From Escherichia coli (GTDB lineage Bacteria > Pseudomonadota > Gammaproteobacteria > Enterobacterales > Enterobacteriaceae): DNA of 5,044 bases. How positions within the stretch are numbered: the stretch's first letter is position 1; each line of letters opens with the position of its first letter. The notes under the pieces are model-generated. The model searched no databases. It saw nothing but the letters and a program-made list of their open reading frames with translations, and was not told the DNA's origin. This document shows, in pieces, positions 1,906 to 5,044 of the stretch. The stretch lies in assembly GCF_003334315.1 (NCBI RefSeq), contig NZ_QOWR01000098.1, one strand, 5' to 3'. The translations under genes and the position numbers were made by a program.

Positions 1906-1950
1906 CTCACCAAACAACTAGTCACCAGTTAAGACACCGCAAAAAGTTAC

Positions 1951-1981
1951 CCATGGGTATTTACTTTTTAAATACCTATGG
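1951..1981. promoter_or_regulatory. Imperfect palindrome ccatgggtattta / taaatacctatgg downstream of racR; operator-like and related to the sites upstream of racR
   Basis: Half-sites at 1951-1963 and 1969-1981 are inverted copies (12 of 13 match) and share CCATrGGTA with sites A and C. The overlapping hexamers TTTACT (1960-1965) and TATCCT (1983-1988) could form a rightward promoter towards ydaG/ydaF. Confidence 0.45.
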
Positions 1982-2159
1982 GTATCCTTCTTTTCATACC
2001 AACCCACCCCGCCCCACAGAATGCAGGGCAATACTTCGAGTTACCAGGCAGTGGTCAGGGGTTAAGTAGCCAGCCCGAGGCGTAAGAACATGACGGCGGG
2101 ATTCAAATTTTGCAGTGCAGCAGTTAGTTCCGCCACCCGGCGTTAAGGGGAGAGATAAG

Positions 2160-3093: not shown

Positions 3094-4188
3094 TTGTCTG
3101 TTAAATTTAAATGGTGGAGTGCGCCTCCGGTTGTAAATAACGACATTGCTGTGTGTAGTCCTGGCGGCATCAGTTTTTTTCTTGAAGTTCGGCTGATGTC
3201 CGCCCTTTTTAAAGTGAATTTTGTGATGCGGTGGGTTGAAGCTAAGGAAAATGATCCGGAGGAAATGGAAGGCGCTGAACATCCGCACAATGAGAATGCT
3301 GGCAGCGATCCGCATCGCGATTGCAGTGATGAAACTGGCGAAGTCGCAGATCCCGTAATCGTAGAAGACATAGAGCCAGGTATTTATTACGGAATTTCGA
3401 ATGAGAATTACCACGCGGGTCCCGGTATCAGTAAGTCTCAGCTCGATGACATTGCTGATACTCCGGCACTATATTTGTGGCGTAAAAATGCCCCCGTGGA
3501 CACCACAAAGACAAAAACGCTCGATTTAGGAACTGCTTTCCACTGCCGGGTACTTGAACCGGAAGAATTCAGTAACCGCTTTATCGTAGCACCTGAATTT
3601 AACCGCCGTACAAACGCCGGAAAAGAAGAAGAGAAAGCGTTTCTGATGGAATGCGCAAGCACAGGAAAAACGGTTATCACTGCGGAAGAAGGCCGGAAAA
3701 TTGAACTCATGTATCAAAGCGTTATGGCTTTGCCGCTGGGGCAATGGCTTGTTGAAAGCGCCGGACACGCTGAATCATCAATTTACTGGGAAGATCCTGA
3801 AACAGGAATTTTGTGTCGGTGCCGTCCGGACAAAATTATCCCTGAATTTCACTGGATCATGGACGTGAAAACTACGGCGGATATTCAACGATTCAAAACC
3901 GCTTATTACGACTACCGCTATCACGTTCAGGATGCATTCTACAGTGACGGTTATGAAGCACAGTTTGGAGTGCAGCCAACTTTCGTTTTTCTGGTTGCCA
4001 GCACAACTATTGAATGCGGACGTTATCCGGTTGAAATTTTCATGATGGGCGAAGAAGCAAAACTGGCAGGTCAACAGGAATATCACCGCAATCTGCGAAC
4101 CCTGTCTGACTGCCTGAATACCGATGAATGGCCAGCTATTAAGACATTATCACTGCCCCGCTGGGCTAAGGAATATGCAAATGACTAA
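3094..4188 (+). CDS. recE: Exodeoxyribonuclease VIII (RecE), N-terminally truncated: only the C-terminal exonuclease-domain portion is present
   Basis: The translation contains [35 protein letters not shown] ... [10 protein letters not shown], which I recognise as the C-terminal region of Rac RecE. The stop at 4186-4188 overlaps the recT start, as in the native recET operon. The reading frame is open from 3010. The track start at 3094 is TTG; the first in-frame ATGs are at 3196 and 3226 and neither has a good Shine-Dalgarno, so the true start, if any, is uncertain. Confidence 0.8.
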
Positions 4189-4867
4189 GCAACCACCAAT
4201 CGCAAAAGCCGATCTGCAAAAAACCCAGGGAAACCGTGCACCAGCAGCAGTTAAAAATAGCGACGTGATTAGTTTTATTAACCAGCCATCAATGAAAGAG
4301 CAACTGGCAGCAGCTCTTCCACGCCATATGACGGCTGAACGTATGATCCGTATCGCCACCACAGAAATTCGTAAAGTTCCGGCGTTAGGAAACTGTGACA
4401 CTATGAGTTTTGTCAGTGCGATCGTACAGTGTTCACAGCTCGGACTTGAGCCAGGTAGCGCCCTCGGTCATGCATATTTACTGCCTTTTGGTAATAAAAA
4501 CGAAAAGAGCGGTAAAAAGAACGTTCAGCTAATCATTGGCTATCGCGGCATGATTGATCTGGCTCGCCGTTCTGGTCAAATCGCCAGCCTGTCAGCCCGT
4601 GTTGTCCGTGAAGGTGACGAGTTTAGCTTCGAATTTGGCCTTGATGAAAAGTTAATACACCGCCCGGGAGAAAACGAAGATGCCCCGGTTACCCACGTCT
4701 ATGCTGTCGCAAGACTGAAAGACGGAGGTACTCAGTTTGAAGTTATGACGCGCAAACAGATTGAGCTGGTGCGCAGCCTGAGTAAAGCTGGTAATAACGG
4801 GCCGTGGGTAACTCACTGGGAAGAAATGGCAAAGAAAACGGGTGATGATGCCAACTTACTGATTTAG
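4181..4867 (+). pseudogene. recT: recT (RecT single-strand annealing recombinase) interrupted by IS1 after codon 220
   Basis: ATG at 4181 is preceded by AAGGAA. The translation [35 protein letters not shown] ... THWEEMAKKT matches RecT as I remember it. From 4841 the frame runs into the IS1 terminal sequence, adding GDDANLLI before a stop at 4865-4867. The track ORF start at 4124 is a spurious upstream extension. Confidence 0.85.
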
Positions 4868-5044
4868 TGTATGATGGTGTTTTTGAGGTGCTCCAGTGGC
4901 TTCTGTTTCTATCAGCTGTCCCTCCTGTTCAGCTACTGACGGGGTGGTGCGTAACGGCAAAAGCACCGCCGGACATCAGCGCTATCTCTGCTCTCACTGC
5001 CGTAAAACATGGCAACTGCAGTTCACTTACACCGCTTCTCAACC
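4841..5044 (+). mobile_element. IS1 insertion sequence, left end (IRL plus the first ~200 bp); continues past the window edge
   Basis: ggtgatgatgccaacttactgatttagtgtatgatggtgtttttgaggtgctccagtggcttctgtttctatcagctgtccc... matches the IS1 left terminal inverted repeat and the insA leader as I remember them, with one mismatch in the IR (GAT where I recall GCT). The exact junction is ambiguous by about 1 bp. Confidence 0.9.
4896..5044 (+). CDS. insA: IS1 InsA (transposition regulator / N-terminal transposase part), 5' partial
   Basis: GTG at 4896 is preceded by GAGGTG. The translation is [49 protein letters not shown], the InsA zinc-finger-like N-terminus. It is truncated by the window end. Confidence 0.85.

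Follow-up and report, generated by a model that had tools for sequence, protein, structure and literature searches.

In a Rac-type lambdoid prophage of Escherichia coli, the spacer between the repressor gene and ydaG very likely specifies a conserved, modular, and highly structured leader RNA of about 155 nt. The spacer (1906–2159, 254 bp) belongs to a window of 5,044 nt, the whole stretch of DNA analyzed, in which the genes are ordered as in the immunity and early-left region of such a prophage. The RNA lies at the place taken by nut in lambda and by put in HK022, is unrelated to both, and was found neither in Rfam nor in the accessible literature. It probably controls whether the toxic early-left operon of the prophage is expressed. 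The explanation that we favor, tentatively, is that it acts in cis and renders transcription from the early-left promoter (PL) resistant to termination. The features of the spacer and its junction with ydaG, in window positions, are as follows.

1943–1989, no strand assigned: left operator region (OL), two 12-bp palindromic operators in a larger inverted repeat (palindrome search and motif counts)
1960–1988, plus: predicted PL, −35 TTTACT (1960–1965), 17-bp spacer, −10 TATCCT (1983–1988), 8 of 12 consensus matches
1996–2150, plus: whole conserved structured leader RNA, about 155 nt (sharp conservation boundaries, distribution, covariation)
2001–2005, plus: 5′ strand of helix P0, AACCC, pairing with GGGAU at 2098–2102; 4 of 5 pairs form in the window copy
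2006–2062, plus: long irregular hairpin (covariation, independent folds)
2006–2010 with 2058–2062, plus: P1 of the long hairpin
2014–2017 with 2051–2054, plus: P1b of the long hairpin
2018–2021, plus: A-rich 5′ bulge AGAA of the long hairpin
2022–2028 with 2044–2050, plus: P2 of the long hairpin
2029–2043, plus: conserved loop CAAUAC-NNN-GAGUUA
2063–2097, plus: 35-nt core UAAGUAGCCAGCCCGAGGCGUAAGAACAUGACGGC, near-invariant over all long-family copies
2069–2071 with 2079–2081, plus: putative core mini-hairpin, GCC with GGC
2090–2092, plus: invariant AUG of the core
2098–2116, plus: variable arm, differing in length and sequence between types
2117–2123, plus: conserved box GCAGCAG (GCAGYAG across types), kept in both subfamilies
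2127–2150, plus: GUUC followed by an H-type pseudoknot (covariation)
2131–2134 with 2139–2142, plus: pseudoknot stem S1
2135 and 2143–2146, plus: pseudoknot loops L1 (A) and L3 (UUAA)
2136–2138 with 2147–2149, plus: pseudoknot stem S2
2147–2162, plus: ribosome-binding site (RBS) of ydaG, GGGGAGAG, and start codon, overlapping the 3′ arm of S2 (read from the sequence)

The OL/PL region and the conserved element

The spacer corresponds to OL/PL in a lambdoid prophage of the Rac/Qin type. A preliminary description of this DNA had placed here a spacer of about 250 bp between racR and ydaG, with an operator-like palindrome and a putative early-left promoter; spacer and palindrome stand, and the promoter is supported. 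The arms of the palindrome (1943–1963 and 1969–1989) are 86% complementary and contain the operators TACCCATGGGTA (operator 1, 1948–1959) and TACCTATGGGTA (operator 2, 1973–1984). The operator motif also occurs three times in the gap between racR and ydaS (1415, 1439, and 1481), giving five sites in the window; its eight strand matches compare with 0.33 expected, a count reached by none of 200 shuffles. The repressor presumably binds these predicted operators. The two operators overlap the −35 and −10 hexamers of PL. As in other lambdoid OL/PL regions, repeated operators shared with the right operator (OR) region thus overlap a sigma-70 promoter downstream of the repressor gene. The palindrome together with TCCTTCTTTT (1948–1994) also scores as intrinsic-terminator-like, having a 16-bp stem and a T-run, and could end racR transcripts besides serving as OL.

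With only 8 of 12 consensus matches, the PL of the window falls under the threshold of a simple promoter scan and was missed by it for this reason. We therefore surveyed 106 distinct upstream flanks of the element for the best sigma-70 promoter within the proximal 55 nt. In 69 flanks it reached 9 or more of the 12 consensus matches; none of 106 control windows did so. The flanks contain more than 20 hexamer versions, such as TTGACA-17-TATAGT (K-12 Rac) and TTGACT-17-TACCTT. Where the best promoter had at least 8 of 12 matches (91 flanks), the −10 hexamer ends 36–40 nt before the conserved loop in 81, and the window promoter keeps the same distance. The predicted PL transcript would start at about 1995–1996, where K-12 has the A of GCATACC, and the element begins within a few nucleotides of the predicted start. 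Hence a sigma-70 promoter stands at a fixed spacing from the element in different sequence surroundings. The promoter–operator part is ordinary lambdoid biology.

Downstream of the promoter, positions 1996–2154 are conserved at 76–100% identity with abrupt boundaries, and the flanks of different copies cannot be aligned. By the preliminary description, a spacer no better conserved than the flanking genes would have spoken against its reading; the opposite was found, the spacer being conserved more than its flanks. Over the spacer (1906–2159), E. coli strain CP53 has the same sequence as the window (100% identity). Of 5,426 complete E. coli genomes, 3,697 (about two-thirds) have a near-full copy of the element; the copies occupy 6,121 places, with as many as six in one genome, and many of them are 88–100% identical. 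K-12 Rac has a copy. RefSeq E. coli genomes have no annotation over the element. Roughly a dozen sequenced phages, Evi and Tritos among them, carry it as well, as do more than 120 viral contigs and species-representative genomes of Pectobacterium, Prodigiosinella (two copies), Serratia, Superficieibacter, Winslowiella, and Arsenophonus.

Every annotated copy follows a repressor gene (RacR, DicA-like, or CI-like) and precedes variable small genes, then kil and recE. The repressor allele of the window itself differs from K-12 RacR. YdaF occurs in 111 and YdaT in 108 of 138 loci; both are common among the E. coli types, and YdaF is missing from the other genera. A protein family co-occurring universally with the element was sought across the genera, and none was found. 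Conservation of the element does not depend on which repressor allele or which first gene lies beside it. As no phage protein accompanies it universally, its partner should be sought in the machinery of transcription or translation or in some other component of the host.

Anatomy of the leader RNA

The leader is organized from its 5′ end as P0, a long irregular hairpin, an invariant core, a variable arm, a GCAGYAG box, and a pseudoknot next to the first gene. P0 is a long-range closing helix joining the 5′ leader to the segment just 3′ of the core. Its two strands change together between types: AACCC/GGGUU, AACAAC/GUUGUU, GCAGCAAC/GUUGCUG, AAGCA/UGCUU, and CACCCC/GGGGUG. Over 15 types, cognate duplexes average −7.5 kcal/mol and non-cognate duplexes −5.8 kcal/mol, a difference matched in 53 of 20,000 permutations. 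In the long hairpin, 16 of 20 pairs change on both sides among 54 distinct 5′ domains, whose alignment is almost free of gaps. The compensatory cells number 100, against 24.8 ± 4.0 in shuffles (0 of 500 as high) and 10–23 when the partner is slid by 1–3 columns. Thirteen divergent versions, each folded singly, gave the same long irregular hairpin despite their different stem sequences.

The core is so invariant that it leaves no covariation signal, and its fold, a mini-hairpin, is putative. The arm that follows varies most between types; in Pectobacterium polonicum (L158, ~8750–9030) it holds an insertion of ~120 nt forming a long extra stem, and all conserved parts are kept. The pseudoknot covaries: 93% of cells are paired, compared with 33–49% when the partner is slid, and five of its eight pairs change on both sides. 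S1 appears as CGCC/GGCG, CGGC/GCCG, or CACC/GGUG, and S2 as CCC/GGG, GCC/GGC, or GCCG/CGGC. In types other than that of the window, the start codon follows the pseudoknot by 7–17 nt.

The sequences are related by descent and recombination, so that shuffle controls overstate significance; the slid and cognate-partner controls are safer. RNAalifold on the raw MAFFT alignment returned a weak consensus because of register shifts in that alignment. A GAAC/GUUC helix that it proposed was discarded: it is invariant in the long family, and the short subfamily described below has GAAG or GAAA opposite an unchanged GUUC. A first reading of types B–E as having a variable-arm hairpin, UUGYUG/CAGYAG, was also given up, since the short subfamily and the cognate-partner test favor P0; the two pairings may compete. 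A strand test by G–U pairs was marginal, with 81.4% versus 79.9% pairing on the two strands. Pairing thus does not fix the strand, and the orientation rests on the promoter and the RBS.

Covariation analysis across homologous copies, as proposed in the preliminary description, therefore found compensatory changes and upholds a structured RNA. Of the short structured RNA suggested there, the structure is confirmed by covariation and by the common fold of the divergent versions; at ~155 nt and with several helices, it is complex and not short. On the whole, the caution of that description was largely right.

Several copies are truncated or hybrid. K-12 Qin keeps only the pseudoknot and Shine–Dalgarno (SD) sequence before ydfA, and its own promoter replaces the rest. 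The pseudoknot and SD are also retained in Chris1/mEp237-type phages. A short subfamily, made up of phage mEp237 and 93 viral contigs, keeps P0, AAGUAGCC, the mini-hairpin, CAUACGAA, a GCAG-N-AGG box, and the pseudoknot; the core is thus partly kept, and the large hairpin and the AUG are absent. In an Arsenophonus prophage, the 3′ half is missing, and a boxA (CGCUCUUUAACA) and a possible boxB come after the 5′ domain and core instead. This copy is arranged as follows.

Arsenophonus triatominarum locus L166, ~6705–6885, no strand assigned: 5′ hairpin, core, boxA (CGCTCTTTAACA), and possible boxB hairpin; no variable arm or pseudoknot

As judged from its letters, the L166 copy appears to be a natural hybrid of the leader with a nut-like site. 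BoxA-like sequences were found nearby in just 4 of 139 loci. Three E. coli viral contigs (L020, L021, and L056) have a perfect rrn-type boxA (TGCTCTTTAACAA) on the operon strand, ~390 nt from the start of the element and ~240 nt after the leader.

Possible functions of the leader RNA

Comparison with catalogued RNAs identified no relative. The covariance models of Rfam 15, run on the plus strand of 1995–2160, gave no match even with E-values up to 10, and a full-text literature search for the core sequence returned unrelated primers only. No leader RNA is mentioned in the study of dicBF regulation (PMC10448788) or in the RacR studies (PMC6765115, PMC11014345). Homology to put was rejected: against the putL annotated in the HK639 GenBank record and the putL region of HK022, the Smith–Waterman score was 18 versus 15 ± 2 for shuffles, of which 62–72 of 500 did as well, and HK639 versus HK022 scored 55. 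An nhmmer profile search of HK022 and HK639 DNA for the element found nothing. A lambda-type nut site was likewise rejected, as no boxA (CGCUCUUUA-like) occurs within 1995–2160 with up to two mismatches. YdaG, YdaF, and the first products of Evi, Pectobacterium, and Superficieibacter match only PHROGs of unknown function and thus give no N-like protein, a negative that does not extend to a very remote N analogue, given the diversity of N proteins. The annotation of the Evi genome includes Q and no N. Hence the analogy to lambda PL drawn in the preliminary description holds for position and fails for a nut site and N. Two families of small RNAs (sRNAs) were also set aside: the AgvB/AsxR anti-sRNAs are located at the PR′ moron site (PMC4104026), and the Pas sRNAs are absent from K-12 (bioRxiv 2026.05.13.724894).

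We propose that when the repressor is lost, the PL transcript would begin with the ~155-nt leader, in which P0 would enclose the long hairpin and the 35-nt core, followed by the arm, the GCAGYAG box, and the pseudoknot abutting the RBS of the first gene. The folded RNA would act in cis on the transcription complex producing it, which would then resist Rho and the intrinsic terminator of a DicF-like gene ~1 kb downstream. With no phage N protein, RNA polymerase could thereby transcribe through to kil/dicB, recE/recT, and xis/int. The mode of action would resemble that of HK022 put or Bacillus EAR, and the leader would be a member of neither family.

This proposal draws on the RNA structure itself, the conservation of the element across repressor alleles and first genes, the lack of an N-like product, the put- or nut-like position, the swap in Arsenophonus, the DicF terminator downstream, Rho-dependent silencing, and the induction that follows loss of RacR. 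In HK022 and lambda, putL and nutL are located directly after the early-left promoter (PMC9378689). Judged from its sequence, the boxA that replaces the 3′ half in Arsenophonus appears to be an exchange for a known antitermination module. In 97 of 110 loci (88%), the leader is followed on the same strand by a DicF-like gene, at a median of 987 nt; there the gene stands, with its own terminator, between the leader and kil/dicB and recE/T. In K-12 Qin, whose leader is truncated, the main transcript ends at the DicF terminator, with little read-through (PMC10448788). At trac, inside racR, Rho ends transcripts from PRM and so keeps kilR silent (PMC4150792). Loss of RacR raises ydaG, ydaF, kilR, ydaE, racC, and ydaC 40–70-fold (PMC6765115).

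Several points weigh against an antitermination leader. Its function is deduced from sequence comparison and from the published behavior of related operons. A second, PR-side copy was looked for in 138 loci and in the whole Evi genome and was not found, unlike in put-bearing phages; each of the loci has one element match, and the Evi genome a single one. Canonical intrinsic terminators were detected on the operon strand in just 16 of 99 loci by a scan that was too strict and missed the DicF terminator, so that it shows only that canonical terminators are rare on that strand. With so few of them, Rho and the DicF terminator have to carry the argument. Folded as a single sequence, the RNA is no more stable than its shuffles (z = −0.04), an uninformative outcome. 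Qin and the mEp237-type phages manage with truncated versions. The adjacency of pseudoknot and RBS, retained together in Qin, is unexplained by an RNA that modifies RNA polymerase and points to translation. Lastly, in Arsenophonus the 5′ domain coexists with a nut-like site, and it may have a role other than antitermination.

The strongest rival, in our estimate unlikely but worth serious consideration, places the control in translation. The pseudoknot, possibly with a short leader ORF from the invariant AUG, would set ribosome loading on the first cistron, and Rho polarity would set the operon, the untranslated leader and first gene being exposed to Rho as in riboswitch-controlled Rho termination. 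That Rho polices the region (PMC4150792) fits this scheme, as does the position of the pseudoknot, which ends 7–17 nt before the start codon in nearly all junction types, contributes its 3′ arm to the SD in the window, and is, with the SD, the sole part kept both in K-12 Qin and in Chris1/mEp237-type phages. The AUG has a GAGG 9 nt upstream, and its frame in the window type stops at a UAA inside the pseudoknot, 12 nt before the ydaG AUG. Yet the first genes are tiny and differ, and none of them would seem to need an invariant RNA of 155 nt. In types B, C, and E the leader ORF reaches its stop after 4–7 codons, and the mEp237-type subfamily has no AUG; most types have the SD outside the pseudoknot, and the Serratia start codon is 47 nt away. 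Less probable still is a sensor, in which the P0–hairpin–core junction would form an aptamer-like domain for a small molecule or host factor and the downstream part would be the expression platform. This reading concerns the input and is compatible with either an antitermination or a translational output. As in riboswitch aptamers, a multi-helix junction has helices that covary and junction strands that are invariant over several genera. Competing pairings are available, namely the P0 3′ strand with the GCAGYAG box in types B–E and the S1 strand CCGCC with an upstream GGCGG in the window type, and dicBp-driven expression in Qin is stress-responsive (PMC10448788). However, these alternative pairings are inconsistent across types, no Rfam riboswitch class matched, and the gene context, with downstream genes unrelated to metabolism, suggests no ligand or factor.

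It is improbable that the element mainly stabilizes or processes the mRNA, as an RNase III or RNase E substrate setting its half-life, or is released as a trans-acting sponge or sRNA pairing via the core. The irregular helix of ~19 bp does resemble RNase III substrates, the 35-nt invariant single-stranded stretch could be a seed, and RNase III and RNase E shape the Qin dicBF transcript, loss of RNase III removing the ydfA-containing species (PMC10448788). But Qin, the site of that RNase III effect, has no hairpin, the element contains no terminator or defined 3′ end that we could find, no target was identified, and the invariance far exceeds that of a typical seed. A micro-protein, which the preliminary description had offered as an option, is very improbable as the cause of the conservation. 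The 14-codon (ATG 2021) and 18-codon (ATG 2090) frames are present as described there; ATG frames of 38 codons (1953–2069) and 35 codons (1978–2085) and a 59-codon GTG frame extending into ydaG had been overlooked; none of these three is conserved as protein. In favor, AUG 2090 is invariant in the long family with its GAGG, every such copy starts Met-Thr-Ala, and gene callers and PHROG 751 extend YdaF-like proteins through the region. Past Met-Thr-Ala, however, the products are unrelated and range from 4 to more than 45 codons, which with the loss of the AUG in the short subfamily also led us to reject a leader peptide. Core synonymous positions are equally invariant and the helices covary; the ATG at 2021 is polymorphic (T/C), and the 35- and 38-codon frames begin upstream of the predicted transcript start. 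We give least credence, next to none, to a DNA-level site (an extended operator, or a recombination or replication site) or a recently spread functionless repeat. Prophage mosaicism does spread the element, many copies are nearly identical, and pairing barely separates the strands. On the other side stand the compensatory changes in four helices across genera, the fixed register to promoter and RBS, and the operators, which lie outside the element and differ by immunity type while the element does not.

HK022/HK639 put, an RNA-only processive antiterminator, is one of the known systems nearest to the element. Both lie directly after the early-left promoter of a lambdoid phage lacking a recognizable N, and both would be folded nascent RNAs with irregular stems, conserved independently of the downstream genes. 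They differ in that put, which antiterminates without a protein through the zinc-binding domain of the beta-prime subunit of RNA polymerase, consists of two stem-loops in ~70 nt, whereas the element spans ~155 nt with P0, hairpin, core, arm, and pseudoknot, is single per phage without a putR equivalent, and shares no sequence similarity with put. Lambda nutL with N shares the position in the early-left leader of a CI/Cro-type immunity region, and a segment with a boxA replaces the 3′ half in one Arsenophonus prophage; the window leader, in contrast, has no boxA and no recognized boxB-type hairpin, and the first products are not N-like. EAR of the Bacillus eps operons, said to have been described by Irnov and Winkler in 2010, is reportedly a complex multi-helix cis RNA of more than 100 nt that allows read-through of distal terminators without a dedicated protein. 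The element is likewise a complex multi-helix RNA of more than 100 nt in a long operon, its read-through role being our proposal; organisms and sequence are unrelated, and EAR lies between genes while the element lies at the 5′ end. The dicBF leader of K-12 Qin (dicBp–ydfA) heads a homologous operon (ydfA/ydaF family, DicF, kil/dicB) behind a repressor-controlled promoter just upstream and has an identical pseudoknot and SD, but it lacks P0, hairpin, and core, and in the accessible studies of that operon no leader RNA is described (PMC10448788). Like the pseudoknot operators of T4 gene 32, rpsO, and the alpha operon, the element has a compact H-type pseudoknot that comes shortly before the SD, by a few nucleotides, or overlaps it. 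Those operators are bound by the downstream-encoded protein, whereas the pseudoknot of the element is the 3′ end of a larger RNA, and the genes downstream of it vary between types, which argues against a single cognate autoregulatory protein.

The kilR, dicB, and DicF genes of Rac/Qin-type prophages kill or reshape the host, the same prophages encode the RecET recombination system, and Rho-dependent silencing of this region makes inhibition of Rho, NusG, or NusA lethal in K-12. The conserved RNA heading the operon would be a missing layer in keeping these genes off and switching them on, and would help to explain how lambdoid phages without N pass terminators. The leader might constitute a previously unrecognized class of phage regulatory RNA gating kil/dicB, DicF, and recET, either as a second RNA-only processive antitermination system, unrelated to put, or as a switch responding to a ligand or host factor; this is possible but, in our judgment, doubtful. 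Were it a sensor, it would belong to a new category. RNA and phage specialists would be surprised by a complex, unannotated RNA present in two-thirds of E. coli genomes, although its function is conjectural, and the copy in K-12 Rac makes the question directly testable by standard genetics.

There is also a gain for annotation. Where gene callers run through the element, ydfA-like genes carry a spurious N-terminal extension. Models of the YdaF/YdfA family, including PHROG 751, have an extension of ~19 aa from the in-frame leader AUG, and the phage records ON470580, ON470583, and OV696610 have CDSs through the leader labeled "head-DNA stabilization protein D" or "Uncharacterized protein"/"hypothetical protein". 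These CDSs and extensions are probably annotation artifacts. The first ORFs after the leader in Pectobacterium and Prodigiosinella loci (L158, L168, L169, and L130) are small and basic, e.g. MINQQQLRRAQRLAGKAVRQRSSKKW; one such ORF was tested and had a weak match to a Kil-family PHROG (E = 0.004).

Genes around the spacer

The spacer is flanked by the following genes.

18–629, minus: ydaU, replication gene
695–1120, minus: ydaT
1104–1385, minus: ydaS
1486–1905, plus: repressor gene, RacR-type allele of 139 aa, transcribed toward the spacer (ORF list; PHROG 5736 transcriptional regulator, E = 4e-70)
2160–2294, plus: ydaG, start codon 2160–2162
2305–2460, plus: ydaF
downstream of ydaF, minus: sieB
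3150–3212, plus: DicF-like sRNA gene with a stem and U-tract terminator (Rfam DicF, 39.1 bits, E = 4e-6; fold)
3226–4188, plus: short recE-type gene, ORF of ~320 aa

The DicF-like gene lies within the early-left operon, between sieB and the recE-type gene and upstream of recT. Its 39.1 bits fall short of the Rfam gathering score (48), and K-12 DicF has a different 5′ seed region. The recE-type ORF starts right after the DicF-like terminator. RecE of Evi has 826 aa and recE of K-12 measures ~2.6 kb; the alignment of the window ORF with Evi RecE is limited to a 42-aa acidic linker, and from its sequence the window gene appears to be a short or domain-swapped form. The recE-type gene is followed by recT, whose 3′ end is interrupted by an IS1 end. 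This end (IS1B family, ~4848–5044) is 100% identical in at least 5,000 plasmids. At the other side of the window, ydaU holds clusters of short direct repeats (150–245 and 455–500), comprising TATCTGTATCTT and several CGTGAC/GTGACA units as read from the sequence; by analogy with lambda O, they resemble the iterons of an origin lying within the gene for its initiator.

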